From an uncultured Flavobacteriales bacterium (GTDB lineage Bacteria; Bacteroidota; Bacteroidia; Flavobacteriales_G; JALEGO01): a DNA stretch of 64,000 bases. Location of the stretch: positions 5,862-69,861 of the forward strand of contig CAYOHR010000001.1 in assembly GCA_964403835.1 (NCBI GenBank). The letters are read 5' to 3'. The position numbers were made by a program, and so were the translations under genes. Each line of letters opens with the position of its first letter. The stretch's first letter is position 1. Positions 1 through 33,180 of this stretch are shown piece by piece. The notes beneath the pieces are model-generated. The model was not told the DNA's origin, made no database searches, and was given only the letters and a program-made list of their open reading frames with translations.

Positions 1-3000
1 AGTGGTCCTGGAGCTAAGATGGTTGGCAATATAACTCCGGGAGTAAGTTCTCGTTTCAACTTTGGCACCCCTACTTTTACTCCTTCGGTAGATTTACCTA
101 TGACAAATTTTACGGCAACCGGCCGGTTTACAGTAGGCGCCGAACTTTTGGTATTGCATCCAAATGCTTTTGTTTCAGGATATTTTTCTTCGCAAGTATT
201 GGCAGAAAATACTAGTAAAAATCCATCTTTTGGTTATATGCATTCCGAAGAAGGACAAAAAAACAATAGTGCCATTATGGATTTTAACCGTGAAAACGAT
301 GGAGGATTTACTCCCAACACGTTAAATATGCCCATAACCAATTACACGTATGATGTTTATGGTGTTTCCGGACAAGGAATTGGAGGAAGTTATAGACCTG
401 TTAGAAATGATATAGGCTATGTTTTTGATGCCGAAAGCTATTCAACCAGTGGAGATTTTTCATTAAGTGTTGAACTTGGAGTTGGGAATTCATTCCATGC
501 AGGAGGCGATGTTATGGTAAATACGGTAAATACGTATTCAAAACCATGGACAAATGACAACAAAGCCTCAAATTTATTGGCATTTCGTGCTACAGGAGCA
601 GATGACACATACGAAAAATTTTACTTTAAAGAAGCTTCCGAAAAAACGGTTGATCAAAACGCTAATTGGATTCCTTCCATTGGGGGTTATGAACCGGTTC
701 GAATCCAATTAAAAGAAAACAGCAAATACAATGTAGAGGGCTCTAATCAATTTATCGATAATAATAACGTTACTAAAGCTATTCCAAGCAATAACTACAA
801 AGCTATTCGTGATCCTCGCAGTCAGGTTATTTCTTATTTAACTTGGCAAGAAATGGCTGATTTTGGACTGGTTAACACGCTTAATCCAAGTAATTATCCA
901 AGTCATCACATTGCTGAAATATCTACATTAAATCCTTCGGGACAAAGATACGTGTATGGTATTCCGGCCTACAATAAATCTCAAAAAGAAGTAACTTTTG
1001 CAGTTGGTCAAACAGCAGCCTATGGCAATGGTCATACGGGCGATTGTCAATCAGGTTTAGTTAATTATACCGAGGGTATTGATAATAGCATGTCGAATAA
1101 ATTAGGTATTGATAATTATTACACCTCTACCACTACCCCTGCCTATGCGCACGCATACCTGCTTACCTCTGTTTTAAGTAACGATTATATTGATGTTGAT
1201 CAGGTAAGAGGCCCTAGTGATAACGATTTTGGATCATATACTAACTTTTATTATTCTAAAATCCCAAATTATAAATGGAGAACGCCCTTTCAGGATGCCA
1301 ATTATTCAGAAGGTTTAAAATCTGATAAAATGGACGATAAAGCCAGTTATATTTATGGTGAAAAAGAGCTTAATTACTTAGATTCTATTGTAACCAAAAA
1401 TCACATTGCCATTTTTTATAAAGATAATCGCGAAGATGGGTTTGGAGTAAAAGGAGAAGACGGAATATTAGAACCTGCAGTAGCTCAAAAAAAATTGACA
1501 AAAATAAGTCTGTTTTCTAAGCCGGATTATCGAAAAAATGGTGTTAATGCGGTTCCTTTAAAAGAAGTTCATTTCGAATATGATTATACTCTTTGTCCAG
1601 GCCTGCCAAACAACATAAATAATGGTGGTAAATTAACTTTAAAAAAGATATATTTCACCTATCAAAGCTCCTTTAAGGGCAAGTTAAATCCTTACGAATT
1701 TGTTTATTCTGATTTTAACCCGAGTTATAATATAAAAAACTATGACCGATGGGGCAATTATAAACCAAATCCAATCACTGGTAATTGCGCTATTTTAGAC
1801 TCTATTACAACCGCTGAGTTTCCTTATGCTGAGCAAAACCAAACTAAAGCAAATAAATATGCAAGTGCTTGGTCTTTAACAGGAATTAAATTGCCTTCCG
1901 GAGGAACCATGAATGTGGAATATGAAAGTGATGATTATGCGTATGTTCAAAATAAAAGGGCAGGGCAAATGTTTAAAATTGTGGGCAGTTCTCCAACCGT
2001 TCCCAATAGTTCAACTAATATTTCAACCTCACCGGCACTTCTCCCATTAAGTAATAACAGTGAAAAAAATCACTATTTAATTTTTGAATTACAACCTGGA
2101 TTTACAGATATTGATGAATATTTTAAAGATATTGATTTACTTTATTTCCGCTTTTTAATGTTGTTTGACAACACCAATAGTAAATATGACTATGTTTCAG
2201 GATATGCCGATTTAGGCACTAATAATCAGTCTACTAAAGGGGTTGTAAATATTGGTGGCGTTAGTTATGGTTATATAAAAATTAAATCTGTTTCTTTGGG
2301 TGACAATGGAAGTAATGCTGATTATAACCCTATTTGTAAAGCCGCTTTGCAATTTGGCCGATTACATTTATCCAAATTTATTTGGGATCAGCCGGGCATT
2401 TCTGACAACCTAGGTTTTGGAAAACAGATATTAGATGCCATTATTAATTCAAGCTTTGCTAAAAACATTGGCGAAACCATTAAAGGCCCTAACAAAAGTA
2501 TATGGGATAAAAGCCGAGGAAGAGATTTTATTGCTCAAAAATCCTTTTTCAGACTTAATAATCCAAATAAAAAGAAATTAGGAGGCGGTTGCCGCGTAAA
2601 AAAAATATATGTGAATGATGAATGGAGTACCATGACTCAAAACCAACATACATCAAACACTTATGGCCAACAATACTATTATAATCTTGAAGACGGAACT
2701 TCAAGCGGTGTTGCAGCCTATGAACCCCAGTTAGGAGGTGATGAAAACTCAATGAAACGGCCTGTTTTTTTCAAGCAGGAAAACACACTTGTCCCTGATG
2801 AGCAATTTTATCACGAAGAACCCTTTGGTGAAGCTTTCTTCCCATCACCAACCGTTGGGTATAGCATGGTTACCGTTAAAAATTTAGATAGACCTAATGT
2901 AAGCAGGCATGCTACCGGAAAAACCGTACATGAATATTATACATCGAAAGATTTTCCAACTATTACAAAACATACCTCTGTCGATTCTAAACATCACAAA

Positions 3001-4758
3001 TCAGACCCATTTAGTTTATCTTCTTTGTTTTCTATTAATGTGAAAGATTACATGACTGCTAGTCAGGGTTACTTGGTAGAGTTAAATGACATGCACGGAA
3101 AAGAAAAGGCACAAAAAATATTTGCCGAAAATAAAACAAGCCCAATAAGTGCTATTACCTATAAATATAAACAAGATCCGTATCTTGAAAATGCAAACAG
3201 ATTGCGAAATAATGCCCCTGTGATAGATCAGGAAGGAAATGTTTCTGAAAAAGAAATTGGCGTTTTTGTAGATGTGGTTGCCGACATGAGACAACAAAGA
3301 ACTGAAATGGCTAGTTATGGCGCTCAGCTTAACTTAGATGCGTTTTTTATTCCGCCTTTCTTTTTTATTCCACTACCTACCGTTTGGCCTTCGTATACAA
3401 GTGAAGCAACTCAGTTTAGAAGTGCTGTAACAACCAAAGTAGTACAAAAATTTGGTATGTTAGAAGAAACCATTGCCGAAGATTTAGGTTCAATTATTAG
3501 TACAAAAAATATTGCTTATGAAGCAAATACAGGCACTCCAATAATTAATCAGGTTACCACTAATTTTAATGATTTAGTTTACAATTCAACCCTACCAGCA
3601 TATTGGTTTTATGATGGAATGGGCTTGGCTTATAAAAACATTAATTTAAGCATGAAAAATGTATCGTTTAACAGCAGTGGTATTGCTACCGTTAATAACG
3701 CTACTACTTTTGCCGAAGGGGATGAACTTGCTCTATCAACAGGCGAAAAAGCTTGGGTTACCGCTGTAACGGCAAATACTATTAAATTACAAAAGAAAGA
3801 TGGGCAAGCTGTAAGTGGAACTTTTGATATTCGAGTACTTAAATCGGGTAGAAAAAATATTTTATCGGCAGATATGGCTACTATCAGTACCCTTACCAAC
3901 CCTTTAAATAATATTAAAAATAATATTTATGAAAATGTGTTGCACGCTTCTGCCATTGAATATTCGCAAATTTGGAGAACGTACTGCAACTGCATAGATC
4001 CAAGTTTAACCAACAATGATTTTAACTCTCTTATATTAGGAGTTCAAGGAAATTGGAGTCCTGTTAGAAGCCATGCGCACTTAGCAGGTCGAACACAAAG
4101 TAATTACAATAACCAAACCAATATCCGAAAAGACGGGGTATTTACCTCTTTTTCTCCCTTTTATAAATTAGATCCTAATAAAAAATGGGATAGAGATGCA
4201 CAAAATTGGACTTTTATAAGTCAAATTACCGAGTATACTCCTTATGGGCAAGAACTTGAAAGCAAAGATGCTTTAAACATATATTCTTCGGCCATTTTCG
4301 GTTATAATAGCACCATAGCTACTGCCGTTGGATCAAATACCAGACATCGTGAATTAGGGTTTGACAATTTTGAAGATTATGATTATAATCTATGTATTGA
4401 TGGGCATTTTAAATTTCCATCTAACGTGTCTATCAATAACACAAATGCACATTCAGGTACAAAAAGTTTAAAAGTATCAAGCGGAACACCCGTTGAAATG
4501 TCGAAAGATATTGTTGCTTGTGACTTTAGTGATTGCAACGTAGTATTAAATGGAGCAGATATTGGAAATAAATTTGTTATTAGCGTTTTTGGAGGTACCG
4601 GTCCGTACGAATTTGATTGGGAAATTTTAAGTGGCTCACCTACTATTTTACCTTCCATTAACCAAAATAGTATTGATGTTTCCGGGTCATCCTATTCAAT
4701 TACCGTTAAGGTAACTGATTATAAAGGATGTTCAATTATTAAGACGTATAATAAGTAA
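1..4758 (+). CDS. Giant secreted/surface protein, 5'-partial (continues upstream of the window); divergent YD/Rhs-like hairpin motifs; C-terminal SprB/Ig-type repeat; function unknown
   Basis: Frame 1 is open from nt 1 (SGPGAK precedes the first ATG at 19), so the true start is outside the window. 1579 aa are visible. Motifs: VHFEYDY, IYFTYQ, PSGGTMNVEYESDDYAY, YYYNLEDGTSSG, ITYKYKQD. The C-terminus is GGTGPYEFDW...VKVTDYKGC. I saw no enzyme or toxin motif. Confidence 0.7.
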   Translation, partial: SGPGAKMVGNITPGVSSRFNFGTPTFTPSVDLPMTNFTATGRFTVGAELLVLHPNAFVSGYFSSQVLAENTSKNPSFGYMHSEEGQKNNSAIMDFNRENDGGFTPNTLNMPITNYTYDVYGVSGQGIGGSYRPVRNDIGYVFDAESYSTSGDFSLSVELGVGNSFHAGGDVMVNTVNTYSKPWTNDNKASNLLAFRATGADDTYEKFYFKEASEKTVDQNANWIPSIGGYEPVRIQLKENSKYNVEGSNQFIDNNNVTKAIPSNNYKAIRDPRSQVISYLTWQEMADFGLVNTLNPSNYPSHHIAEISTLNPSGQRYVYGIPAYNKSQKEVTFAVGQTAAYGNGHTGDCQSGLVNYTEGIDNSMSNKLGIDNYYTSTTTPAYAHAYLLTSVLSNDYIDVDQVRGPSDNDFGSYTNFYYSKIPNYKWRTPFQDANYSEGLKSDKMDDKASYIYGEKELNYLDSIVTKNHIAIFYKDNREDGFGVKGEDGILEPAVAQKKLTKISLFSKPDYRKNGVNAVPLKEVHFEYDYTLCPGLPNNINNGGKLTLKKIYFTYQSSFKGKLNPYEFVYSDFNPSYNIKNYDRWGNYKPNPITGNCAILDSITTAEFPYAEQNQTKANKYASAWSLTGIKLPSGGTMNVEYESDDYAYVQNKRAGQMFKIVGSSPTVPNSSTNISTSPALLPLSNNSEKNHYLIFELQPGFTDIDEYFKDIDLLYFRFLMLFDNTNSKYDYVSGYADLGTNNQSTKGVVNIGGVSYGYIKIKSVSLGDNGSNADYNPICKAALQFGRLHLSKFIWDQPGISDNLGFGKQILDAIINSSFAKNIGETIKGPNKSIWDKSRGRDFIAQKSFFRLNNPNKKKLGGGCRVKKIYVNDEWSTMTQNQHTSNTYGQQYYYNLEDGTSSGVAAYEPQLGGDENSMKRPVFFKQENTLVPDEQFYHEEPFGEAFFPSPTVGYSMVTVKNLDRPNVSRHATGKTVHEYYTSKDFPTITKHTSVDSKHHKSDPFSLSSLFSINVKDYMTASQGYLVELNDMHGKEKAQKIFAENKTSPISAITYKYKQDPYLENANRLRNNAPVIDQEGNVSEKEIGVFVDVVADMRQQRTEMASYGAQLNLDAFFIPPFFFIPLPTVWPSYTSEATQFRSAVTTKVVQKFGMLEETIAEDLGSIISTKNIAYEANTGTPIINQVTTNFNDLVYNSTLPAYWFYDGMGLAYKNINLSMKNVSFNSSGIATVNNATTFAEGDELALSTGEKAWVTAVTANTIKLQKKDGQAVSGTFDIRVLKSGRKNILSADMATISTLTNPLNNIKNNIYENVLHASAIEYSQIWRTYCNCIDPSLTNNDFNSLILGVQGNWSPVRSHAHLAGRTQSNYNNQTNIRKDGVFTSFSPFYKLDPNKKWDRDAQNWTFISQITEYTPYGQELESKDALNIYSSAIFGYNSTIATAVGSNTRHRELGFDNFEDYDYNLCIDGHFKFPSNVSINNTNAHSGTKSLKVSSGTPVEMSKDIVACDFSDCNVVLNGADIGNKFVISVFGGTGPYEFDWEILSGSPTILPSINQNSIDVSGSSYSITVKVTDYKGCSIIKTYNK

Positions 4759-6866: not shown

Positions 6867-6921
6867 TTCTCAATCCGTTTTTCATCTTTTTTTTATTACT
6901 TTGCATTCGAAATTGTTTTTT

Positions 6922-7116
6922 ATGAAAAATATTCTTTCCGCCTTTTTAGTAGTTATTTGTTGTCTTTCTTTCTCTTGCAAAAAGTGTTCAACCTGCACAT
7001 ATACTGATTCTGCAAAGGCTGTTACTACTACTTCTGAATTCTGTAGTACCGGGCATGTTTATAAGAATCAATTAGACCAATACGAGAAATCGGGTTGGAA
7101 ATGTGTAGATAAATAA
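6922..7116 (+). CDS. Small Cys-rich lipoprotein (64 aa)
   Basis: The ATG at 6922 gives MKNILSAFLVVICCLSFSC (lipobox LSFSC). The mature part has CKKCSTC...C...C. The track start at 6901 is a TTG extension. Confidence 0.55.
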   Translation: MKNILSAFLVVICCLSFSCKKCSTCTYTDSAKAVTTTSEFCSTGHVYKNQLDQYEKSGWKCVDK

Positions 7117-7303
7117 TGGTTTAAAACTATTATTTAAACTGAATCTACTTAAAATTAAATCTTAATTGTTTCCCTAATTTTGAAGGGCATGCCTATCGGT
7201 AATTAATGCAAAACCATTAATTATTAGGTATATAGCTTTTCCGATTTTCCGTTATACCGCCGGGGCTAAAGCTAGCAAAACTTGGATTTAATAATTCTAT
7301 AAA

Positions 7304-7891
7304 ATGGAAAATTACAAAGAACTAATTGAAAAAATTAAAATTGAGATAACGGGGGACAAATTTCTCATTAATCAATTAAAAAAAACAAAAGAATTATTGA
7401 ATTCCAATTCAATAAGTTCTTTAGAATCCAATACAAATCTCGCTTATTGGTTATATGTTTATGGACATGAAAATTTGGCTTTAAAATTATGCAATGTTCT
7501 TTCAACAACCGATTTTGATGGAAAATTTGATAAGTGGACTTGGGTAGAATATTCCATTTCACTTGCTATAATTATTTATGAGCAAAAAAAGTTAATAGAT
7601 AATGTAAATGCTTTATCTTCCATTTTAACTACACCCTACGACTCTATTGACAAGGAAAAAAAATTATTGAATGAGAAAGCACTTAATCGGCGTTTAAATG
7701 GTGATTTATTGTATACCGCTGAAATTGAGGAAGCCATAGATGATAAAAATGCTGAAGAAGAAATAGAATATCGGTTTTTGCAATTACAAGAACTATGTTT
7801 TATTTATGCAAAAGGAGGATCTAAAAAATTTCCGAGAGAGAAAGTAAAAAATGAAATTTCTGAAAATCTTAAAAAGATTAAAAGGAATTGA
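7304..7891 (+). CDS. Hypothetical protein (195 aa), possible immunity-type protein
   Basis: Clean ATG ORF in the AT-rich island with no enzymatic motif. The helical-repeat-like core NLAYWLYVYGHENLALKLCNVL...WTWVEYSISLAIIIYEQ recalls small immunity-associated families (from memory, unverified). Confidence 0.55.
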   Translation: MENYKELIEKIKIEITGDKFLINQLKKTKELLNSNSISSLESNTNLAYWLYVYGHENLALKLCNVLSTTDFDGKFDKWTWVEYSISLAIIIYEQKKLIDNVNALSSILTTPYDSIDKEKKLLNEKALNRRLNGDLLYTAEIEEAIDDKNAEEEIEYRFLQLQELCFIYAKGGSKKFPREKVKNEISENLKKIKRN

Positions 7892-7988
7892 TCATTAATG
7901 GTTTGCAAGCAACTAGAGCTAAATTAGAAGCAAAAGAGAATTATTGCATAAAGCTCATATGAAACTCAGTTGCTAATCTTAAAGTATA

Positions 7989-8363
7989 ATGAACATGGAA
8001 TATATGGATTATATTTTTTTATGGTTAGGTAAAACTGATAAACCGGAAACCGAATTTAACAATTATTTTAAATTAGACTATTCTAATGAAAATAAAATAT
8101 GTGGTTTTTGCATTGATATTGATCAAAAATGGTATGATGAAGACTTTATTGGATATTTGAAATTCGCAAATATTAAGAATATTTTAGAAATTTTAGATGA
8201 AGTCCCTATTAACCCATCTGAAAAAGACAAAGTACTCCAAAAGTGTAATGAAATTGACTTAAAAAAAGCAAATGCAGTCTATTGGTATTCAGGACTTATA
8301 GCTCCCAATTATGATAAAGATTATAACGGATTAAAATACATAGGAAGATATTTATTAGATTAA
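7989..8363 (+). CDS. Imm22-like immunity protein (124 aa)
   Basis: IFLWLGKTDKPETEFNNYFKLDYS...CIDIDQKWYDEDFIGY matches my recollection of the Imm22 family pattern (h-h-LW-h-G, Y-h-x-h-D-Y, YDEDF). Not confirmed by a search. Confidence 0.55.
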   Translation: MNMEYMDYIFLWLGKTDKPETEFNNYFKLDYSNENKICGFCIDIDQKWYDEDFIGYLKFANIKNILEILDEVPINPSEKDKVLQKCNEIDLKKANAVYWYSGLIAPNYDKDYNGLKYIGRYLLD

Positions 8364-8440
8364 TGGTAATTCCGCCTTTGGATTATCTTATAAGCACTTC
8401 ATAAGGCAAGGGTTTTAGCGTTTTCATGTTATAAAATTTT
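8341..8440 (+). repeat. Direct repeat copy A (covers the last 7 codons + stop of the Imm22-like gene and downstream spacer)
   Basis: 8341-8396 matches 10051-10106 with 2 mismatches over 56 bp. After a 30-bp insertion (8397-8426) the match resumes at tgttataaaattt (8427-) versus tgttataaattt (10107-). Confidence 0.9.
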
Positions 8441-8732
8441 TAAAAACCAAAACAACTAAAAAACTAGTGACAAACAAGAAAGGTTTAAAGGAGACACAAG
8501 AGAAATTGTACTTTATGATGGAAAAATAATAGAGTAATTTATGCCCCCGGCTCTATAAGAGGTAAATCTATACCCATGGACATAAAAGATAGGGCTAGTG
8601 ATACTTTAGATGATATTGAGTTATTTTTACAAAAATAGGATACCTTTATTCAAAGTAAAAGAGGAGAGTATAAAAAACGCCCACAAACAATGAGTATATA
8701 CCTATGACAGATTCCCTTTTTTAAAATAAAAA

Positions 8733-9041
8733 ATGATCGTTAAAATACATAATAATCTTAAGAAACAATCAACCATAATGGATGTTAATATTGAGATTAA
8801 ATTTATCAATGAAATACTCAAATTAGATAGGAGAGAAGTAGCTGAAAATGAAACTATTTTTTTTGAAATTCTTGAAATTCTTTCCACATCACATACACAA
8901 TCAATATTTGAAATAAACGAAACAAATATTAAAAAATTTCGAAAACTTAGTAATTGGATTAGAAGTTGGAAAAGAGAATTTAAATCGAAAGAAAATCTTT
9001 TGGAAGTCATTGCTTTAAATATGGAAGCAATTTTTTATTGA
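8733..9041 (+). CDS. Hypothetical protein (102 aa), weakly supported
   Basis: ORF on the same strand as its neighbours, ending at the start of the next ORF. A mirror antisense ORF of identical length (8702..9010) exists, so the coding status is uncertain. The region is very AT-rich. Confidence 0.3.
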   Translation: MIVKIHNNLKKQSTIMDVNIEIKFINEILKLDRREVAENETIFFEILEILSTSHTQSIFEINETNIKKFRKLSNWIRSWKREFKSKENLLEVIALNMEAIFY

Positions 9042-9076
9042 AAAAGATTAATTTTGTAAAAACCCCAAGCCCAAAA

Positions 9077-9640
9077 ATGCTTAAAACAATACCAATACTC
9101 CTGTTAATTTTTTTTACCAATTGTTCTCAAACAAACATCAATGATATGCAACCAACCATGAAATACGAAACTGCATTCAATTTATCTGTGAGTTATGGTG
9201 AGTCAAAACACCTTGATATTAAGGAAAGACTTAAGGTTAAAACCGACCAAAGGTTTAGGTTTGACTTTAATTCAACCGATATTTCTTATGATAAACGAGA
9301 CTCAACATTGGTCATCCGTTCTTGTATTGAGCGTGAAGGGGCGCCCAAAAGGGAAGATTTTCTTGCTGTTTTAGGAAATTTGAATCAAAAATATGCCCAA
9401 GAACTTGCTAATGGCTACTTAGAGTATGATGAATCTGCCTTAGAAGTAGACGGAATCGATCCGTATAGATTGAATATAAGGTATGATATTAAAGACGGAA
9501 GTTTTGATAAAAAAAATTTCATTGCAAAAGTGAATGAACTGCATATAGCCGCTAAAAGATGGGGTAACAAATATTATGATGCAGTTTATGAAGAACTGAA
9601 TAAAACATGGAAAAAAGACAGTACATTTAATAAAGAATGA
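9077..9640 (+). CDS. Hypothetical lipoprotein (187 aa)
   Basis: The ATG at 9077 gives MLKTIPILLLIFFTNCSQ (signal peptide + Cys). The track start at 9038 is a TTG extension. No recognisable domain. Confidence 0.6.
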   Translation: MLKTIPILLLIFFTNCSQTNINDMQPTMKYETAFNLSVSYGESKHLDIKERLKVKTDQRFRFDFNSTDISYDKRDSTLVIRSCIEREGAPKREDFLAVLGNLNQKYAQELANGYLEYDESALEVDGIDPYRLNIRYDIKDGSFDKKNFIAKVNELHIAAKRWGNKYYDAVYEELNKTWKKDSTFNKE

Positions 9641-10024
9641 ATGCCTCCCCACCCTATTCCAATTCTAGATATCGCAATAATAATAAACCAGTCTACTATG
9701 ATAATTTTTTCAACTTTCGAGGAATTGCTAAATAAACTATCAATTCTTGATGATGATGCTTTCTTTTATATCCCAATTGGTATTCCATTTAATCAGTTTA
9801 CTAAAATTGCATACATGAAGGAAGATGATGTGGATGAGTCTATAGAGATTAATGATGACTTAGTTCCGATTGAGATTCACAATGCAAACATGAAAAGCCT
9901 TATAGAAGTGACCACATTTAGAGATATTATTGATCTTTATTCAAAAAAGCATCCGAATGCTTCTAATGATGAATTCTTTCATGCACTTCTCTACTATTTA
10001 GAGCATGATGATTTTCTTGAATAA
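9641..10024 (+). CDS. Hypothetical small protein, possible immunity-associated family
   Basis: ATG directly follows the upstream TGA. An internal ATG at 9698 (MIIFSTFEELL) is an alternative start. The acidic middle and C-terminus FHALLYYLEHDDFLE resemble a small family I recall from immunity-gene neighbourhoods (unverified). Confidence 0.5.
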   Translation: MPPHPIPILDIAIIINQSTMIIFSTFEELLNKLSILDDDAFFYIPIGIPFNQFTKIAYMKEDDVDESIEINDDLVPIEIHNANMKSLIEVTTFRDIIDLYSKKHPNASNDEFFHALLYYLEHDDFLE

Positions 10025-10050
10025 TGAGGTTCTGCTGAAAAAAAGCAAAT

Positions 10051-10120
10051 TAGGAAGATATTTATTAGATTAATGGTAATTCCGCTTTTGGATTATCCTA
10101 TAAGCATGTTATAAATTTGA
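10051..10120 (+). repeat. Direct repeat copy B (non-coding copy of the Imm22-like gene 3' end + spacer)
   Basis: See copy A. It lies 27 nt downstream of the stop of 9641..10024 and retains ...GGAAGATATTTATTAGATTAA (GRYLLD*) without an attached gene. Confidence 0.9.
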
Positions 10121-10195
10121 TTTTTTTTAAACAAAAATGATACTATCTTTAGTTACTAGCAACTTTTATTAATTATTTAGAATCGGCAGCTTAAA

Positions 10196-10744
10196 TTATC
10201 CAAAAACACAATCTTTAACTGTTGCTTCGCCAATTTTTGTTAACTCTGTTTCAACATCCGGAATTATGATATTTGCAATTTCTGAAGTCAAGTATTTTAG
10301 TCCTTTTTGATATAGAAATTGCAAAAGTTGGTCAAAAGATTTGGCAGGAAAAATTTCTGGTTTTTCAAGGTTATGAACTGCAATTGTAATATCATCAACC
10401 ACTCTATGGCTTTGAAAAACAAGCATAAAATAAGGAAGTATTCTGCTAATTTTTAAATGTATAACTTCAATTGCACCTTCCTCCCTTACTGCATTTTCAA
10501 AATCCTTTGTGGTTAGAATAGATGAGCTTGGGTTTTTTGTGGAAATAATTTGATAGGTAAAACAGTAATCGTAGTTATAATCGGTTAGGTTAAGCACATT
10601 ATACGGAGGGAAAAGCGCTATTAGTTCGTCATAAATACCTTTTGTGTTTGACCACATTACCTTTTTAAGAATTGCGTAGTCGTTTTTACGATAAACACCT
10701 TCTATTAATGATAGGATGTCATTCGGTATTTTCATCTCATCCAA
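10196..10744 (-). CDS. Hypothetical protein (182 aa)
   Basis: Clean ATG ORF 18 nt downstream of the 233-aa gene on the same strand. No recognisable motif. Confidence 0.6.
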   Translation of the reverse strand: MDEMKIPNDILSLIEGVYRKNDYAILKKVMWSNTKGIYDELIALFPPYNVLNLTDYNYDYCFTYQIISTKNPSSSILTTKDFENAVREEGAIEVIHLKISRILPYFMLVFQSHRVVDDITIAVHNLEKPEIFPAKSFDQLLQFLYQKGLKYLTSEIANIIIPDVETELTKIGEATVKDCVFG

Positions 10745-10762
10745 ACCTTTATTAGCAATGTT

Positions 10763-11464
10763 TTAAACTATTAACTCATCCGAATCGGCTTGGAATTTAA
10801 AGCCTAAGCGTTTGCCTGTTTTAAGCGGCATATTTTTTGATATTTCTTCCATTTCGTATATAGAAAGTTCTTTCATAGCGTCATAGGAAGGAACAAACAA
10901 ATCAAAATCTAAGGCATATAATAAAAGGGATTCAATTACTTTTCTCAACTCATCCCGATCAATAACAGCATTTGAAAAATCGTTGTATAAAAACCCCATT
11001 TGTCGTTTTCCTTCTAAAAAATAATGGTTTTCTTTATTCACAAAAAGGCGAGCAATTAAATATCCCACATCATTTTTCCGATCATAAATAAACGAGTCTT
11101 TCAAAAAATTATACACATAAATAATTCCGCAATACGAACGTGTATCATCATCCTGAATATAAGATGTTTTCCACATACCATGACTTTTATCAAACTGAAA
11201 AACATTGGAATGCATGTGAAAAATAAGAACATCTCCGGCAATAATAATCTCCAATTCAAAATCGTTTTGTATTCTATAATCCAACGGAATATTGGGATCC
11301 AGGTTAGGCAACGATCTTCTTAACTCAGAAATAACCTCAGCCACAACTTGAACCATATCGTTAAATACTTTTTTCGTGTTTCGATATACCAATTGTTTCA
11401 TGGTAGCCTTTTCTGCAACCACAGTTTGCAGGGATATAAAAGATGAAGAGGGTTTCTTTGTCAT
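10763..11464 (-). CDS. Conserved Bacteroidota hypothetical protein (233 aa)
   Basis: The sequence (ILIFHMHSNVFQFDKSHGMWK...YCGIIYVYNFL...GYLIARLFVNKENHYFLEGKRQMGFLYNDF...TGKRLGFKF) matches a conserved hypothetical family I recall from Flavobacteriia. Function unknown. Confidence 0.7.
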   Translation of the reverse strand: MTKKPSSSFISLQTVVAEKATMKQLVYRNTKKVFNDMVQVVAEVISELRRSLPNLDPNIPLDYRIQNDFELEIIIAGDVLIFHMHSNVFQFDKSHGMWKTSYIQDDDTRSYCGIIYVYNFLKDSFIYDRKNDVGYLIARLFVNKENHYFLEGKRQMGFLYNDFSNAVIDRDELRKVIESLLLYALDFDLFVPSYDAMKELSIYEMEEISKNMPLKTGKRLGFKFQADSDELIV

Positions 11465-11490: not shown

Positions 11491-12969
11491 TTAATAGGCT
11501 CGTGCAAAAACTACTTTTTTGTTCGATGGTTTACCTGAGTATATGCATACGCCTTTTTCTTCAAAAGAATCAAGCAAAATACAACGTATGGTTGCTTTGG
11601 TTTCTTCTTTTATTTTTTCTTCGGTTTCCGGCGTTCCATCCCAGTGCGCTAATACAAAGCCTCCTTTTTCATCTAAAGTTCGCTTAAACTCATCGTATGT
11701 GCTTACCTGATGGGTGTTTTCTTCACGAAACAGTTTGTTTTTATTCATTAAGTTATGCTGTATATCTTCCAACATATCTTTTACGGTATTTGAGAGCGAT
11801 TCCATGGCAATACTTGTTTTTTCTAAGGTATCTCTACGCACCACTTCAACCGTATTATTCTCCAAGTCTTTTGGGCCAATAGCAATTCTAACAGGCACCC
11901 CTTTAAACTCGTACTCAGCAAATTTCCAACCGGGTTTTTGTGTATCTCGGTTATCGTATTTTACGCTTATTCCCAGGGCTTCTAATTGTTTTTTAATTTC
12001 GTTTGCTTTTTCTGAAATAGTCATTAATTGGTCCTCCCCCTTATAAATAGGAACTATGACTACTTGAATGGGCGCTAATTTTGGTGGTAAAACCAAGCCT
12101 AAATCATCGGAATGAGACATAATCAAGGCCCCCATTAAACGCGTAGAAACGCCCCACGAAGTTGCCCATACATATTCATTTTTCCCTTCTTTTGAGGCAA
12201 ATTTTACATCAAATGCCTTGGCAAAATTTTGTCCCAAAAAGTGAGAAGTGCCTGCCTGTAAAGCTTTCCCGTCTTGCATTAATGCCTCAATGCAAAATGT
12301 TTCTAATGCGCCGGCAAAACGCTCATTGGGCGATTTTACTCCTTTTATAACCGACATGGCCATAAATTTTTCGGCAAACTCGGCATACACATATAGCATT
12401 TTTGTTGCTTCTTCAACGGCTTCCTGCTCACTGGCATGCGCCGTATGACCTTCTTGCCACAAAAACTCGGCCGTTCTTAAAAACAAGCGCGTTCTCATTT
12501 CCCAACGCACCACATTCGCCCATTGATTAATGAGTATAGGTAAATCGCGGTATGACTGTATCCAATTTTTATAAGTTTTCCATATAATAGCTTCCGAAGT
12601 AGGCCGAACAATTAATTCTTCTTCTAACTTGGCTTCCGGGTCAACCATTAATTTACCGGGCCGATCAGGGTCTGTTTTTAAACGATAATGCGTTACAACG
12701 GCACATTCTTTTGCAAAACCTGCCGCGTTTTTTTCTTCTGCTTCAAATAAACTTTTAGGGACAAAAAGAGGGAAATAAGCATTTACATGGCCCGTTTCTT
12801 TAAACATTTTATCGAGTTGCTGTTGCATTTTTTCCCATATTGCATACCCATACGGTTTAATAACCATACAACCTCGCACTTCCGAATTTTCAGCTAAATC
12901 TGCCCGTTTTACAATCTCATTATACCATTCAGAATAGTTCTCTTTTCTACTAGGAAAATCCTTTGCCAT
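11491..12969 (-). CDS. proS: Proline--tRNA ligase (archaeal/eukaryote-like class II type)
   Basis: 492 aa. N-terminus [37 protein letters not shown], with class II motifs and a C-terminal ProRS domain. Confidence 0.95.
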
Positions 12970-12988
12970 AATCTTCTTAAAATTTACT

Positions 12989-12996
12989 CAAACTTA
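12989..12996 (-). promoter_or_regulatory. Candidate Bacteroidota -7 box (TAAGTTTG) for proS
   Basis: The minus-strand sequence TAAGTTTG fits TAnnTTTG and ends 19 nt upstream of the proS ATG. Confidence 0.3.
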
Positions 12997-13184
12997 CATA
13001 AATATGAACAAAAAATTATGGAATACGGCCCGAAAATTAAACCCTATGTTAATTTTGCTTAAACTGGCCTTTTGTTGAGAAGAATTTCTGTTAAATGAAT
13101 TTATTCATACAGTTTTTTAGTATTTTTAGGTATCCATTGATTATTGCGTTATCTTATCGTTTAACTTATATATCACAAAATTTA

Positions 13185-13227
13185 GAAAACCCCTTGAAAA
13201 TAAAGGGGTTTTCTGCTTTTTTATTTT
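13185..13227 (+). terminator. Intrinsic-terminator-like hairpin (perfect 11-bp stem) + T-tract
   Basis: GAAAACCCCTT (13185-13195) / 7-nt loop / AAGGGGTTTTC (13203-13213), followed by TGCTTTTTTATTTT. It lies inside the would-be signal-peptide coding region of the downstream gene. Confidence 0.5.
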
Positions 13228-13228
13228 A

Positions 13229-14548
13229 TTGACCCTCGCTTTTCAGGCACGGGGACAAGAAAATGCAGGTTTAATTACAGATAATTACTTGCCCAGCAGT
13301 CAATTATACATTAATCCGGCTCTTATTGTTGATCAAAAACCATGGTTCGATCTACAATTGGTAGGAGTTTCGGCCTTTATTAAAAACAATTATCTTTTTG
13401 CCCCGGAAAGTAAGTTTATTAAACCGAATGAAATAAATACCTTAGGCTTAAATACCTCAATAAAACACGCTAAAGCCTATGCTAATGCACAAATTTACGG
13501 TCCTGCAGCCAGCATTTGTATCGGAAAAAACTCATTCGGGTTTCAAACCGCTGTTCGTGCCTATGGTAATGCCAATCGCATTCCGCCCCTATTAAGAGTG
13601 CTTGATAATAGCCTAGATCCGGAGTTTCAAAATCAAGTGTATGAAGTAAGCAATTTTAGGCTAAAAGCCTTGGCTTGGGCGCAATTTGGCTTAACGTATG
13701 GAAGAATTATTTTACATGAAAATGATGAAATGATTTCTGGCGGAATATCGGTTAATTATTTAAAAGGTTTAGGCAACCAAGCGCTCATTATTAAAAATGG
13801 AACTTATGATAATACCAGCGGCGATGGAGATTTATTGAATTTAGACGGTAAGTTTTCATACGCAAATCCTCAATGGTCCAATGGAAATGGCTTGAGCACC
13901 AGCATTGGGGTTACTTATAAACGTATGATTGGAAAAGCCAATAATTACGTCCCTCATTCTCCAAAATCGGGCTGTGTAGCTTCCGCTTATAAATTCCGAT
14001 TAGGTGTTTCGTTAATTGATATTGGCAGAATTAAATTTAAAGAGTACTCATATGGAGATTTTGATGTAAACACTAAACTGTCGCTGGATAGTGCTTTGGA
14101 CTTCCAAAATACCTCTGCCAGTCTTCTTAATTCAGGTAAGCAATCATCCAATTTACCTGCCGCACTTTCAGTTCAATTTGATTATAATTTAGGAGAAGGT
14201 TTTTATGCGAATGGTAGTTTAGTACAAAAACTTAGTTTGCCTCGTTCTTACAATGTGGAGCGACCTAATTTATTGCTTATGAGTATTCGGTATGAAAGAA
14301 AATGGCTAGGCGCCGGAATACCTCTTAGTTTTGTTGATTATCACCTTTATCAATTAGGGCTTTGGGTACGACTTGGACCTTTAGTAATTGGGACGGATCA
14401 TATTGTTCCTATTTTTATGTATTCAAAAATATATGGAGCCAGTGTGTATGCAAGCCTCCATATACCTCTTTTTAAAAGTTTTGCTTGTTGGAAAAAAGCC
14501 CGAAATAATACCTATGATGGCGTGCCTTGCCCAAAATGGAGATATTAA
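13229..14548 (+). CDS. Outer-membrane beta-barrel protein (DUF5723 / PorP-SprF-like); start codon uncertain
   Basis: DNYLPSSQLYINPALIVDQKPWFDLQLVGV resembles the N-terminal signature of these OM families (from memory). The in-frame upstream extension to 13172 encodes a good signal peptide but has no ATG/GTG/TTG. Confidence 0.65.
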   Translation: MTLAFQARGQENAGLITDNYLPSSQLYINPALIVDQKPWFDLQLVGVSAFIKNNYLFAPESKFIKPNEINTLGLNTSIKHAKAYANAQIYGPAASICIGKNSFGFQTAVRAYGNANRIPPLLRVLDNSLDPEFQNQVYEVSNFRLKALAWAQFGLTYGRIILHENDEMISGGISVNYLKGLGNQALIIKNGTYDNTSGDGDLLNLDGKFSYANPQWSNGNGLSTSIGVTYKRMIGKANNYVPHSPKSGCVASAYKFRLGVSLIDIGRIKFKEYSYGDFDVNTKLSLDSALDFQNTSASLLNSGKQSSNLPAALSVQFDYNLGEGFYANGSLVQKLSLPRSYNVERPNLLLMSIRYERKWLGAGIPLSFVDYHLYQLGLWVRLGPLVIGTDHIVPIFMYSKIYGASVYASLHIPLFKSFACWKKARNNTYDGVPCPKWRY

Positions 14549-14572
14549 CCCGAATTATGCAATAATTTAGGA

Positions 14573-15925
14573 TTAATTTTTTGATTTTACCCGTATGGCC
14601 CCTTTAAAATGGAGGGCTGTTTTAAAATGATTATTTTTCCAATGATATGAATTTTCTGATAGCTCGGCAGAGGTAAGAATGCCTGATTCCGGAAGGGGTT
14701 CTAAAATAATTTCTGCATCGTGTTGGTGTAATTTTACATATTCAATTCTTTGATCAAATTTTTTTGAATAGTTCAACAATATAGGATACTGAGAAAAAAC
14801 AGAATACCCATTGCCGCATAACATAAGCAGTAAGGCGATGTATGGCATCTTAAAAGAATTTGTTTTTGAACTCATCAAAAATACAAATATGAATAGGCAT
14901 AATAGCGTTATTGGCAAAGTAATTCGATCCGGCCCGGCATCATGCATGGTATATGCCACCGGGAAATGAAAAATTAAAACAAACGCTAAAATAGTGAAGA
15001 GTCCAACGATAAAAAGAGAAATATATGACCACGTTGAAATGCTTTGAATTAGAACATTTCGTTTCATTTTTAAGAGGGGGGCAAATAAGAATGCCGAAAA
15101 AAATAAAAAGATAATTTTTAATCCCCCTGTTTTCAGATAAAGATATGCTGCCAAAACATCCATTTTTAATACCGTTAAACCATTGGCTGCCGCATACGAT
15201 AATTTCCTATCCTGCGTGCCTTCTCCCATATTGCTGAGTATAAATGACCCTGCTAAAAGTAAAAAAGCTAATATTAATTTATTTCTATACCGGGTTTTTC
15301 TTGCTAAAACACACATAATCAATAAAATACCCAAACATAAAATACAGAGTGGTTCGCTGGTTCCTCCTAAATAAATAAAAGAAAAAGCGAGTATTAAATA
15401 GGTGCCAGATGTAGCCTTTGGAGATAAAATTTTACTGATTCCAAGCATTAAAAAACCAAAACTCCATAAATACGTGGTAGAAGCACAATGCCAAAACCAA
15501 ATTTCGCCAATATTAAACGTTCCTAAAAACAGGGTGTTTACAAACAAAACACTGTACAACCACACATGCATAGGCTTTTCGGCGGAAATTATTTCTTTTA
15601 AAAAAGAAAAACTAGCATATATTAAAAATAAAAGCCCAAACAGCTGAAACCCAAAAAAATTAGCAGGCGCTTGGTAAAATGATAAAACAAAATGGTTTAA
15701 AAATACAGAAGTCCAACGGCTGCAATGAATATAATATTCTTGAATAGTCGCTTCAACAGGTCCGAATTTTTGAGCAGCATTCCAAAAATAAAAATCATCA
15801 ATGGCAAATCGATTGTAATAGGCAATAATCCCGTATAAAATTAAAAAACTGAAAGATGTAAAAATAGCCAGTGATACGAATAACTTTTCCGTTAACCCCG
15901 ACTCATTCTTCAATTTTTTATCCAC
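14573..15925 (-). CDS. Polytopic integral membrane protein (>=10 predicted TM segments), function unknown
   Basis: Very hydrophobic ORF. The track start at 16000 overlaps the upstream gene by 83 nt. An in-frame GTG at 15925 or TTG at 15913 is more plausible. Confidence 0.65.
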   Translation of the reverse strand: MDKKLKNESGLTEKLFVSLAIFTSFSFLILYGIIAYYNRFAIDDFYFWNAAQKFGPVEATIQEYYIHCSRWTSVFLNHFVLSFYQAPANFFGFQLFGLLFLIYASFSFLKEIISAEKPMHVWLYSVLFVNTLFLGTFNIGEIWFWHCASTTYLWSFGFLMLGISKILSPKATSGTYLILAFSFIYLGGTSEPLCILCLGILLIMCVLARKTRYRNKLILAFLLLAGSFILSNMGEGTQDRKLSYAAANGLTVLKMDVLAAYLYLKTGGLKIIFLFFSAFLFAPLLKMKRNVLIQSISTWSYISLFIVGLFTILAFVLIFHFPVAYTMHDAGPDRITLPITLLCLFIFVFLMSSKTNSFKMPYIALLLMLCGNGYSVFSQYPILLNYSKKFDQRIEYVKLHQHDAEIILEPLPESGILTSAELSENSYHWKNNHFKTALHFKGAIRVKSKN

Positions 15926-16562
15926 GCACAAACGGATTACTTCTTTTTTCTTTGCCAATGGTAGTGGGCTCGCCATGCCCTGTGTACACAACAACCTCAT
16001 CGGGCAAGGTGTACAATTTTTTTTGAATACTATCTATTAAATCTTGGTGATTACAATTGGGTAAGTCCGTCCTTCCTATGCTGCCATTAAACAAAACATC
16101 TCCATTTATTAAAAATTGTTGTTCTTGGTTGTAAAACACCACATGACCAGGCGCATGACCAGGTGTAAAAATGACTGTTAATGCGCTTTTTCCAAAAGTG
16201 ATCACCTCTCCTTCTGTCAAAAATTCTTTAGGCAAACTGGATGTTTCATAGGGTATTCCGTACATTTTTGAAGCCAAAGGCGTCATTTCTGTTAATGTAG
16301 GCAAATCTTTTTCATGAATGATAGGGTATAAACCAAACTCATTCGTAATAAATTTATTCCCTAAAACATGGTCGATATGGCAATGCGTATTTAATAATTT
16401 AACCGGTTTTAGCTCGTTTGAATATATAAATGCCTTTAAATCAGCTTTTTCATCCTCATCAAAACACCCGGGATCTATAATTACACACTCCCCTGTTTCG
16501 TCATATAAAACGTACGAATTTTCTTGGAATGGGTTAAACGTAAATGATTGAATTTGAATCAT
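15918..16562 (-). CDS. MBL-fold metallo-hydrolase (glyoxalase II-like)
   Basis: HCHIDH metal-binding motif, later TPGHAPGH and GD..F...GR.D. 214 aa. Confidence 0.85.
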   Translation of the reverse strand: MIQIQSFTFNPFQENSYVLYDETGECVIIDPGCFDEDEKADLKAFIYSNELKPVKLLNTHCHIDHVLGNKFITNEFGLYPIIHEKDLPTLTEMTPLASKMYGIPYETSSLPKEFLTEGEVITFGKSALTVIFTPGHAPGHVVFYNQEQQFLINGDVLFNGSIGRTDLPNCNHQDLIDSIQKKLYTLPDEVVVYTGHGEPTTIGKEKRSNPFVRG

Positions 16563-22225: not shown

Positions 22226-24103
22226 TCAATTATTATTGAGTAACACCATTTGCTTCGAAAATATTTTGTTACCGGAAGTAACCCGAAGTAAATAGATCCC
22301 ATTTACCTGGGAAGGAAATTGCATTTTTAAGGTTTCATTGCTTATAAAAACTGATTTTTCGAAAACTTTTTTTCCGTAAACATCATATAATTCTAACACC
22401 CCTGTATTGGATGGATTTGCCTTAATTTGTATGTTTATATCGCCGTTGGATGGATTTGGAAAAACAACTATATCGCCCGTATTTAAAGGCATCTCTTCCA
22501 CTTCTAATGGCCAAAAAGACCCATTTACCTGAGTTATTTCTTTTGTTAAGGTATCTTGTAAAAATGCCATCACAAAAACATTGTGTTCATTAACAGATGT
22601 AAAGCTACCTGAACCAAATAAAACCGGTTTTTCAATGGTTATTTTTTTAGTAAAGGCAAAAGCATATACCGAATCTTGCTTTAAAACCGGGGGCATCGCA
22701 TCCCCTTCTTCTTGTGACAAGAATTGCCTAACCACCGCTTTAAAAGAAGTATCTTGGGCTGACATACCATTTAAAAACATCCAGTTTTCTATGGCTATAA
22801 CCCATAATTTACATCTGTTTGATGAAAGATTTATTTGAGACTTTACCTGCACATTTACCCGTAAAGAATCATTTAAAAGGCTATGCCCTAATTGAACATA
22901 AAACGGAGTTTGGGTTTGAATGTTTCGAATAGCCGAGTTTTGTTGAATAAAACCTAAATTTTGAGGATCATCTTGACCATTCACTATATAATAAGGATCT
23001 TCTAAACTACCATACAAGCCTTTTCTAAAGGTATTTTCGGTAATATAGGCATCATCATTCGATAAAATGGAGTTAAAGTGATACTGAGCCAGAAAAAACC
23101 GACCCTCAAAGGCATTTACGGCCAAATTTTCAAAATACAGGTCCGATATTTCTTTTATTTCGTAACAATTTGCACATCTATTACTGGTAAAGGTTTCTAT
23201 TAAAGTATTTTGAATGTTTTTTACCGGCAGCAATAATACAGCGTGACTAAGACTATCGTTTAGTTTGTTTTGATCGAGGTTCAAGCTGTCCGAAACCCAT
23301 GTTTGAAGCAATGTATCCGACCCATGATAAATTGGATAATTAATAGCAATTTGAACACTTGAAAACGGGTTTATGGTATTGATTACCTTTTGCTGAATAA
23401 ATGTATCAGCAGTTTGAATGTTAAAATAAATATTTTGAAGGGTATCTGCCGATAAATTAGAAATTTCTCCCTTCAAGGGCAAGGTAGAACCCAAAGAGTA
23501 ATAATGATCATCTGTATTTAATGATAGTTTTATATCATGCGATATAGGTGTGTATAACTCAATATTATCTAAGGCTAAGCCAAATAACCAACCACCATTA
23601 TCAGCATATTTAAACCCTATTTTAATGCTGTCAAAAGAGGTAAATGCGGATACGTTCCAAAAATAGGTTTGCCAATCATTTTTCCCTTTTAGCGTATCTA
23701 TAAAAACGGTATCTGTTTGATGTATAATAAACACAAAGGCTTCTTCAATATCATTTTGGTATGCGCCTCCATTAAAAAAAACATCTGCCTTTAAAATGAG
23801 TGAAGCGGGATTGTTTAAGTGAATATTGCCTGAAACTAATTGAGTGTTTAAACTATTACAATTACATTGGTCGTCATTAATTGCTATAAAACGGCTATGA
23901 CTGGGTATTTTCCAATTTTCACTTTGTTGAGTATAAGATTCTCCAACAAGCCAATGATTTACGTTATCGCTTGAATAATACTGCCAATTTTGAAACGTGT
24001 TTTCAAAATCTTCTTTAAAAACGGCCTGCGCAGTTAATAAATTTGTAAATAAACCACAAATTAAAAAAATCCAAACCGTTTTAAAAGAAAGCTGTTTAAT
24101 CAT
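22226..24103 (-). CDS. T9SS type-A C-terminal-domain secreted protein with thioredoxin-like CxxC segment
   Basis: Signal peptide. C-terminal VVFPNPSNGDINIQI...LELYDVYGKKVFE...NGIYLLRVTSGNKIFSKQMVL (Por secretion tail). Internal LIETFTSNRCANCYE. Confidence 0.8.
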   Translation of the reverse strand: MIKQLSFKTVWIFLICGLFTNLLTAQAVFKEDFENTFQNWQYYSSDNVNHWLVGESYTQQSENWKIPSHSRFIAINDDQCNCNSLNTQLVSGNIHLNNPASLILKADVFFNGGAYQNDIEEAFVFIIHQTDTVFIDTLKGKNDWQTYFWNVSAFTSFDSIKIGFKYADNGGWLFGLALDNIELYTPISHDIKLSLNTDDHYYSLGSTLPLKGEISNLSADTLQNIYFNIQTADTFIQQKVINTINPFSSVQIAINYPIYHGSDTLLQTWVSDSLNLDQNKLNDSLSHAVLLLPVKNIQNTLIETFTSNRCANCYEIKEISDLYFENLAVNAFEGRFFLAQYHFNSILSNDDAYITENTFRKGLYGSLEDPYYIVNGQDDPQNLGFIQQNSAIRNIQTQTPFYVQLGHSLLNDSLRVNVQVKSQINLSSNRCKLWVIAIENWMFLNGMSAQDTSFKAVVRQFLSQEEGDAMPPVLKQDSVYAFAFTKKITIEKPVLFGSGSFTSVNEHNVFVMAFLQDTLTKEITQVNGSFWPLEVEEMPLNTGDIVVFPNPSNGDINIQIKANPSNTGVLELYDVYGKKVFEKSVFISNETLKMQFPSQVNGIYLLRVTSGNKIFSKQMVLLNNN

Positions 24104-33150: not shown

Positions 33151-33180
33151 AGGAAAGAGGATGATTTCTTCTTTTAATTC

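Follow-up and report, generated by a model that had tools for sequence, protein, structure and literature searches.

A small islet of orphan immunity genes with a toxin relic, probably a heterogeneous polyimmunity locus, in an uncultured Flavobacteriales bacterium

Genes and composition of the island

The 64,000-nt stretch of DNA analysed here, from an uncultured Flavobacteriales bacterium (the whole stretch is referred to below as the window), contains an AT-rich island at positions 6901-10760, between an operon encoding a giant protein and a conserved pair of genes, one for a 233-aa protein and the other proS. A first-pass annotation, made from the sequence alone, had proposed that this island is an array of orphan immunity genes, i.e., genes for antidotes whose toxins are not encoded beside them, and our analyses were concerned with whether its short open reading frames (ORFs) bear that out. 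The seven ORFs listed in that annotation were all present with the lengths and places given for them; six are co-directional and the 182-aa ORF alone lies on the other strand:

6922-7116, plus strand: 64-aa ORF (71 aa from an upstream TTG)
7304-7891, plus strand: 195-aa ORF, DUF6707 family
7989-8363, plus strand: 124-aa ORF, Imm22 family (122 aa from the ATG at 7995, the start used in the public record)
8733-9041, plus strand: 102-aa ORF
9077-9640, plus strand: 187-aa ORF, putative lipoprotein (200 aa from a TTG)
9641-10024, plus strand: 127-aa ORF, DUF7716 family (108 aa if the start is the ATG at 9698)
10196-10744, minus strand: 182-aa ORF (179 aa from the first ATG)

The intergenic gaps between these ORFs are 187, 103, 369, 35 and 57 nt. 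The G+C content of the island is 29.4%, compared with 35.1% for the whole window (standard deviation 2.3% among stretches as long as the island). Of these stretches just 1% are as low in G+C, and every one of them overlaps the island. It had been called far more AT-rich than its flanks on the basis of two spot counts, 13 G+C in 8701-8760 and 28 G+C in 12301-12360 inside proS, and both counts were exact. The island is indeed the lowest-G+C stretch of the window, but the difference is only about 6 points, and the wording was overstated, proS being a comparator on the G+C-rich side (37-42% in 500-nt windows, where the window elsewhere reaches about 41%). The composition signal is real but moderate.

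Domain scans covered the 41 ORFs of at least 140 aa across the window, plus the smaller island ORFs, and agreed with the first-pass annotation that no toxin domain, recombinase or transposase is present among them. [quoted passage not shown] The window has no tRNA genes, and no DNA similarity to plasmids or phages was found. Two of the ORFs, the 64-aa and the 187-aa, had been described as lipoproteins, and inspection found a hydrophobic N-terminus followed by Cys in both (LSFSC and FFTNC), which makes them putative lipoproteins.

Three immunity-linked families

The Pfam gathering threshold was passed by three plus-strand ORFs, and it is these that carry the interpretation of the island. The 195-aa ORF matched DUF6707 (PF20453; E=4.1e-41, 141.7 bits vs a cut-off of 27) over profile positions 88-278 of 279 only, as does a 204-aa Salmonella protein. 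The 124-aa ORF matched Imm22 (PF14112, DUF4284; E=1.6e-20, 74.5 bits vs a cut-off of 27), its residues 9-121 aligning with profile positions 1-118 of 121, and the 127-aa ORF matched DUF7716 (PF24832; E=4.6e-12, 46.6 bits vs a cut-off of 26), its residues 26-127 aligning with positions 4-101 of 102. The first-pass annotation had associated the motifs IFLWLGKT, YFKLDYS and WYDEDFIGY with Imm22, and had likened ORF 9641-10024, which ends "...HDDFLE" (quoted as ...ALLYYLEHDDFLE), to another small family from immunity neighbourhoods; the motifs were found as quoted, the Imm22 assignment was confirmed, and the second ORF belongs to DUF7716. The three proteins are probably cytoplasmic, having no signal peptide. 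Of the array as it was proposed, then, these three ORFs stand as members of immunity-linked families, while for the 64-, 102-, 187- and 182-aa ORFs there is no immunity evidence.

Among immunity families, Imm22 is one singled out for its occurrence in heterogeneous polyimmunity loci, and it has a conserved W, Y and acidic residue (PMC3482391); the Imm22 protein RehhI has been shown experimentally to neutralise the T6SS DNase Rehh in Salmonella (bioRxiv 10.64898/2026.09.22.753552). The immunity function of the DUF7716 family is predicted: in Salmonella it has been paired with an HNH/ColE7-like T6SS DNase, by prediction only (PMC13224477). For an Rhs-NucA_B DNase, also of Salmonella, the immunity partner named is a DUF6707 protein of 204 aa, again by prediction only (PMC11669294). 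The partner toxins of these families elsewhere are nuclease domains, mostly C-terminal on Rhs proteins fired by type VI secretion, i.e., NucA_B-type for DUF6707, a domain of about 130 aa with the pattern R-x5-HE...H for the Imm22 clade found here, and HNH/ColE7-like for DUF7716. DUF7716 is also found behind an Rhs gene with an AHH tip: in Ralstonia, a homologue (PF24832, E=2.5e-13) is located two genes downstream of a PAAR-Rhs-AHH nuclease. A DUF6707 homologue on a Hymenobacter plasmid, the one that was annotated, lies in a long run of small hypothetical ORFs with no recognised toxin.

Residues W10 and Y24 and the block W46-Y47-D48-E49-D50 are invariant or nearly so in 14 Imm22 homologues and are present in the window protein, which retains all 22 invariant positions of its clade, including W46-Y47-D48-E49-D50-F51. 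Judged by this conservation, the window gene appears to be an intact orphan immunity gene, with a predicted neutralising activity. No PDB sequence relative of the protein was found, nor any plasmid homologue of Imm22 or of the 102-aa ORF.

Defence islands, too, are typically AT-rich with small ORFs, and a function outside interbacterial conflict, e.g., in anti-phage defence or as toxin-antitoxin modules, would account for that much. None of the eight proteins had a PADLOC match, however, there is the lack of phage or plasmid DNA similarity mentioned above, and all three assignable genes point to polymorphic-toxin immunity, and we regard such a function as highly improbable.

Neighbourhoods of the closest Imm22 homologues

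The search for Imm22 homologues gave 34 proteins including the query, all 34 with PF14112 and with named hosts that were mostly Flavobacteriia. Eight independent neighbourhoods were read, in which the nearest homologues have 48-69% identity (locus labels are ours; identity follows):

L139 (Flavobacterium sp. N502540), 56%: 442-aa ORF, Rhs, Imm22 directly after
L150 (Lacinutrix salivirga), 48%: Hcp, Hcp, VgrG, 453-aa ORF, Rhs, Imm22 directly after
L145-L147, 69%: large Rhs-type ORF, Imm22, orphan Rhs tip (Tox-URI2), Imm44, Rhs tip (AHH)
L137, 67%: VgrG, 442-aa ORF, Rhs, 101-aa ORF, 136-aa orphan toxin domain, Imm22, further small ORFs
P0014 contig, 58%: Imm22 farther along an Rhs tail, adjoining Imm26
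L140, 58%: mini-array without a toxin, with Imm51
L142, 56%: toxin-free run of small ORFs
L144, 53%: solitary Imm22 between gyrB and a Sua5-type gene

Imm22 directly follows a toxin gene in four of the eight, this being a full-length Rhs gene in three (L139, L146/L147 and L150) and an orphan toxin domain in one (L137). In one other (P0014) it lies deeper in an Rhs tail, and in the remaining three (L140, L142 and L144) it belongs to a toxin-free array or is solitary. From these neighbourhoods with and without an adjacent toxin it follows that members of the clade can be either cognate partners to Rhs toxins or orphans. It had been set down beforehand that an immunity array would be contradicted by ORFs that match no immunity family and never lie beside toxins elsewhere; what was found were Imm22 relatives that adjoin Rhs toxins.

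The clade's Imm22 genes have 24-30% G+C in host loci of 28-45% (L137, L139, L140, L142, L144-L146 and L150), e.g., that of L137 is 25% G+C inside a locus of 45%. Since these genes are low in G+C whatever the host locus, low G+C appears to travel with the cassettes.

Two other features of these loci deserve a record of their own. A conserved ORF of 442-453 aa without a Pfam domain precedes Rhs in three of them (L137 1464-2792, L139 2113-3441 and L150 2475-3836) and in L137 and L150 sits between VgrG and Rhs; perhaps it encodes an adaptor or chaperone of T6SS-iii that has yet to be characterised. In L140, 3.5 kb from the Imm51-Imm22 mini-array, the minus strand at 11954-16381 encodes a chain of DUF6891, SMI1_KNR4, SUKH_6, DUF7738 and DUF6892 domains in one protein of over 1,678 aa, which looks like a giant polyimmunity protein.

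A relic of the toxin upstream of Imm22

The toxins that precede Imm22 in L137, L139, L145-L147 and L150 have in common a domain of about 130 aa that follows the Rhs cleavage motif and ends ...GRHFHNKLIKDLQGAKTKLEAKKIIAKHHKAHMKLKCK before the stop; no Pfam family and no PDB sequence relative were found for it. Directly upstream of the window's own Imm22 gene, blastn, conceptual translation and shuffles revealed one further feature:

7884-7976, plus strand: relic of the toxin domain, last ~30 codons and stop, frameshifted

In the blastn comparison of the window with L137/L138, there was 71% identity over 485 aligned columns (window 7894-8364), i.e., the similarity did not end at the Imm22 start, and continued for about 95 nt upstream of it, to window position 7894. 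The translation of this upstream part reads LIINGLQATRAKLEAKE and then, after a 7-nt deletion, HKAHMKLSC and a stop, for which the toxin counterpart is ...LIKDLQGAKTKLEAKKIIAKHHKAHMKLKCK and a stop. When the 109 nt between DUF6707 and Imm22 were taken alone, their scores against the toxin 3' ends were 30 (L137) and 29 (L146), whereas 2000 shuffles gave a mean of 10.7 and a maximum of 21, a z of about 10 for both L137 and L146. Based on this homology, the relic is the 3' end of a C-terminal toxin domain of the Rhs-associated type, and the toxin in question is the one cognate to the Imm22 clade to which the window protein belongs. The window's Imm22 gene thus once had a toxin upstream, and is now an orphan with a decayed partner. 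As the DUF6707 match reaches profile position 278 of 279, the breakpoint lies just past the end of DUF6707. The decay has been uneven, the toxin being down to about 90 nt and Imm22 having all 22 of the 22 invariant clade residues.

Repeats, a second relic and the edges of the islet

Two pairs of direct repeats were found in and around the island, one of which brings with it a second relic:

8341-8404, plus strand: copy 1 of a 64-nt repeat, comprising the final 7 codons of Imm22 with their stop and the 41 nt that follow
10035-10114, plus strand: relic of an Imm22 3' end plus downstream flank, with copy 2 of the 64-nt repeat (10051-10114)
7119-7159: left copy of a 41-nt imperfect repeat, 3 nt past the stop of the 64-aa ORF; tentative left edge
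10760-10800: right copy of the 41-nt repeat, overlapping the 233-aa gene (minus strand) in its final 12 codons and stop

The two copies of the 64-nt repeat are 92% identical and share an exact core of 33 nt, for which 0 matches are expected in shuffles. Copy 2 starts a few bases past the DUF7716 stop and reads ...KKSKLGRYLLD and a stop, and it can be read as the 3' end of a second Imm22 gene, most of which has been deleted. An extra colinear 16-mer (10035-10050 vs 8258-8273), which implies a deletion of 67 nt, is the weak part of this relic. No motif recurs in the other intergenic regions of the island. The repeat is a gene relic and not a junction motif, since there are only two copies of it and the other gaps share no motif, and the conserved junction repeats that the first-pass annotation had in mind, as in arrays of acquired interbacterial defence (AID) genes, do not exist here as a family.

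This has a bearing on the comparison that had been drawn with the recombinase-associated AID (rAID) clusters of Bacteroidales, i.e., acquisition of the rAID-1 or an integron-like kind, in which a tyrosine recombinase captures cassettes at repeated junctions. The co-directional small genes, the skewed low G+C and the orphan immunity content are all as in rAID-1 (bioRxiv 10.1101/471110), and the 64-nt repeat and the possible 41-nt bracket could be counted with them. However, 5' of the array stand a 700-aa PKD protein and the 64-aa lipoprotein and no XerD-like recombinase, nor is there one, or a transposase, in the scanned ORFs of the 64 kb; the 64-nt repeat is the gene relic just described; and rAID-1 recombinases have been reported only from Bacteroidales (bioRxiv 10.1101/471110). 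Within the window, recombinase-driven acquisition is largely refuted, and we give it next to no credence.

The copies of the 41-nt repeat match at 30 of 41 positions, and the right copy is the best non-self match of the left among the 127,920 41-mers of the window, the next best having 27. By an estimate from the tail of match counts, 5 kb of AT-rich DNA should by chance contain about one pair with 30/41 matches. As the pair was noticed post hoc and about one such is expected by chance, it is only tentatively that we treat the two copies as the edges of an insertion where the 233-aa gene has its 3' end. The bracket would enclose the 182-aa ORF and exclude the 64-aa lipoprotein, in agreement with the latter's G+C content of 33.8%. 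Taken further, the islet would be a discrete 3.6-kb cassette at the 3' end of the 233-aa gene, with the 41-nt repeats as att-like sites, mobilised without a resident recombinase, in which the 102-, 187- and 182-aa ORFs are new immunity families and the lipoprotein acts against a toxin of the periplasm. We think this improbable, and if true it would mean that environmental Flavobacteriales have a way of moving immunity cassettes without a recombinase.

ORFs and gaps without a family

The 64-, 102-, 187- and 182-aa ORFs had no match in Pfam, NCBIfam or PADLOC. The 64-aa ORF is Cys-rich, and its 33.8% G+C is like that of the upstream 700-aa gene (33.9%) and differs from that of the islet genes; on account of this and of its position outside the 41-nt bracket, it probably lies outside the islet, as the final gene of the operon upstream. 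The 102-aa ORF has 23.6% G+C and is called as a gene in the public record. For the 187-aa protein, one homologue (P0007, 54% identity) was found among 5.8 billion proteins, by a concatenated query that missed known self matches, and the P0007 neighbourhood was uninformative. The 64- and 102-aa ORFs were part of the same query and gave no homologue, a negative that is unreliable on account of the missed self matches. The 182-aa ORF had only its self match among the same 5.8 billion proteins, and it occurs in none of the 133 loci that carry the 233-aa gene; both the 64-aa lipoprotein and this minus-strand ORF may be outside the array altogether. The AlphaFold models of the 187-aa ORF (from two sequences, mean predicted confidence pLDDT 41.6) and of the 182-aa ORF (single sequence, pLDDT 35.6) were unusable.

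In the 369-nt gap at 8364-8732, there are only short, stop-interrupted frames, e.g., KGDTREIVLYDGKIIE and APGSIRGKSIPMDIKDRASDTLDDIELFLQK, each up to its stop, and past copy 1 of the 64-nt repeat (8405-8732) there is no ORF of at least 50 aa. When 7117-7303 and 8364-8732 were translated, none of the fragments matched Pfam, nor did tblastx give a match to the related loci. The gap after Imm22 had no DNA match either, belongs to no Rfam family and its RNA fold is not unusual (z=+1.16). It may be another decayed gene.

These gaps and relics raise the question of whether the whole island is genomic debris, i.e., a decaying remnant of an Rhs toxin-immunity locus or of a transferred fragment, without present function, in which three ORFs simply have not been hit yet. 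Two gene relics, a non-coding gap of 369 nt with stop-riddled frames, the lack of promoters or terminators above chance, and ORFs without assignment in very AT-rich DNA, one of them mirrored by an equally long ORF on the opposite strand, are what such debris would look like. Against it, the decay is sharply uneven, the toxin having been reduced to about 90 nt and a frameshift while Imm22 lost none of the residues that are invariant in its clade; the profile matches of DUF6707 and DUF7716 run through to the final residues; and both relic junctions are just outside retained genes, as expected if damaging deletions were selected against. We therefore consider debris unlikely.

Surroundings of the islet

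Upstream of the island, the giant ORF (window 1-4758, plus strand) extends past the start of the window, with about 285 N-terminal residues outside it. Its family is one of Bacteroidota proteins of about 1,850-2,250 aa (3,611 representatives at E<=1e-3, 2,405 at E<=1e-30), annotated as hypothetical only and without a Pfam domain save for occasional C-terminal Ig-like modules. The giant protein itself has no Pfam, NCBIfam or PDB match, and four full-length family members have no toxin, Rhs, PAAR or HINT domain, one of them ending in PKD + SdrD_B. The 700-aa protein that follows has PKD and beta-propeller-like matches only.

The first-pass annotation had left open whether the islet is free-standing or the immunity tail of this operon, which would then be a toxin-delivery locus. 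The two lie on the same strand with the islet immediately downstream, and on inspection the 700-aa protein ends in two YD-like repeats. The domain content just described offers no support for toxin delivery by the giant-protein family or the 700-aa protein, however, and the toxin relic is homologous to Rhs tips and unrelated to either protein, and G+C falls at the end of the operon. It is very unlikely that the islet is the immunity tail of this operon, and of the two options put forward the free-standing orphan-immunity locus is the probable one.

Downstream, the 233-aa gene (10763-11464, minus strand) lies next to proS (11491-12969, minus strand). Its product matches nothing in Pfam, NCBIfam or PADLOC and, with 34-61% identity, is conserved throughout Bacteroidota, with the nearest relatives at 61% (GTDB genomes) and 55% (JGI metagenomes), and the gene is directly downstream of proS in 87 of 133 loci, making them a conserved gene pair. 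The genes after the 233-aa gene differ even between the two closest genomes, and at that distance only proS and the 233-aa gene are syntenic. Neither the islet ORFs nor the giant protein were found in any of the 133 loci with the 233-aa gene, which places the islet outside the conserved block.

The rest of the window (about 50 kb) comprises housekeeping genes, cargo of the type IX secretion system and an alpha-2-macroglobulin/PBP1C pair, in which a penicillin-binding protein of the PBP1C type comes after a bacterial alpha-2-macroglobulin of 1,882 aa (27502-35559, plus strand). The three cargo proteins (22226-24103, 51045-52331 and 53065-56511, all on the minus strand; Por_Secre_tail, CHU_C and SprB repeats) indicate an organism with a type IX secretion system.

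Comparison with known systems

The islet fits best with the heterogeneous polyimmunity loci described by Zhang, de Souza, Anantharaman, Iyer & Aravind (2012, PMC3482391), a kind of locus that has been reported in Bacteroidetes and for which Imm22 is explicitly listed. As in those loci, the genes are in tandem, co-directional and of unrelated immunity families, with no intact toxin among them (PMC3482391). Where "extended" polyimmunity loci have four or more genes (PMC3482391), the islet has three that can be assigned, and it differs from typical polyimmunity loci in its larger gaps, in having no adjoining XerC/D recombinase, and in its relics of a toxin and of a duplicate immunity gene.

The toxin relic suggests that the islet descends from cassettes that trail Rhs toxin loci. 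Orphan cassettes behind Rhs/T6SS loci in L137, L145-L147 and P0014 have the same Imm22 clade and the same toxin domain, and are likewise AT-rich and in one orientation. The islet, unlike them, has no full-length Rhs, VgrG, Hcp or PAAR gene upstream and no fragment of an Rhs core, and its toxin is down to about 90 nt. With no delivery protein present, it is not a polymorphic toxin locus.

With the AID-1, AID-2 and rAID-1 systems of gut Bacteroidales (Ross et al. 2019; bioRxiv 10.1101/471110), the islet has in common consolidated orphan immunity genes of skewed G+C, and also, as we propose here, a protective rather than a self-protective role. Pseudogenised remnants have been noted in AID-1 as well (bioRxiv 10.1101/471110), and where at least two co-directional genes of low G+C are looked for in rAID-1, the islet has six ORFs in one direction at 29.4% vs 35.1%. 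Membership in rAID-1 fails on the recombinase and the repetitive intergenic sequences, neither of which is present: there is no XerD-like recombinase, no integron-like intergenic repeat and no mobile-element gene in 64 kb, and the host is Flavobacteriales-like. The islet is not a rAID system.

A recombinase-free chromosomal precedent is the islet putatively for T6SS immunity in Salmonella Typhi (Barretto & Fowler 2020, PMC7400221), which consists mostly of orphan immunity genes to effectors that its host genome lacks and was recognised on in-silico evidence as here. It belongs to another phylum, has other families, and is the larger of the two.

The Rehh-RehhI pair (bioRxiv 10.64898/2026.09.22.753552) is comparable in that its immunity protein has an Imm22 domain, and the spacing of the RehhI interface residues D45 and D47 equals that of the invariant D48 and D50 (WYDEDF) in the window protein. 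The pattern R-x5-H-E-x48-H in the flavobacterial partner toxin has the spacing of Rehh R46, H52, E53 and H102, an agreement in spacing only, and the flavobacterial domain, unlike Rehh, has no His at the spacing of H121. A kinship with Tox-REHH, as it is drawn from residue spacing, is at present a lead only.

A polyimmunity islet and what it may mean

Taken together, the stretch at about 7119-10760 is probably a small, free-standing heterogeneous polyimmunity islet, with three intact co-directional orphan immunity genes among small ORFs and decayed relics. As to how it came about, the immunity genes would have arrived as AT-rich toxin-immunity cassettes like those found behind Rhs loci. Being of no use where a delivery protein is lacking, the toxin parts would have been deleted or have decayed, and the immunity genes would have been kept intact. 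Each immunity protein would bind and block the active site of an incoming nuclease toxin from neighbouring bacteria, and the cell would survive toxins that it does not itself make. The lipoproteins could guard the periplasm, and nothing found lends support to that.

Several points weigh against this reading. Family support extends to only three of the 6-7 ORFs, the 102-, 187- and 182-aa ORFs being without a family, and the 102-aa ORF may not be a gene, its coding status being uncertain because of an equally long ORF on the opposite strand. The gaps of 187, 103 and 369 nt exceed those typical of tight polyimmunity operons. A sigma-70 promoter scan was at chance level and found no terminator, although such a scan is little informative for a Bacteroidota genome, and the Bacteroidetes -7-like motif TAnnTTTG is upstream of only two genes, DUF6707 (by 129 nt) and the 187-aa ORF (by 28 nt), which hints at two transcription units. 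There is no close relative, all islet proteins and the 233-aa protein being singleton clusters at 90% identity, and both the acquisition and any variability among strains are putative. Finally, a protective role presupposes contact with T6SS-armed neighbours.

The kind of locus is already known, and the islet is one more, ordinary example of it that opens no long-standing question. What it does offer is a concrete pair for experiment, the window's Imm22 protein and the Rhs-tip domain of about 130 aa of Flavobacterium sp. N502540 and Lacinutrix salivirga, a domain that may, by its sequence pattern, belong to the recently described Tox-REHH DNases. In addition, the surviving toxin 3' end shows directly how an orphan arises, i.e., a cassette loses its toxin and keeps the antidote. 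The retention by cells of immunity genes against toxins they do not produce has been documented mainly in gut Bacteroidales and enterobacteria, and to this phenomenon the islet adds a case from an environmental, uncultured, Flavobacteriales-like bacterium.

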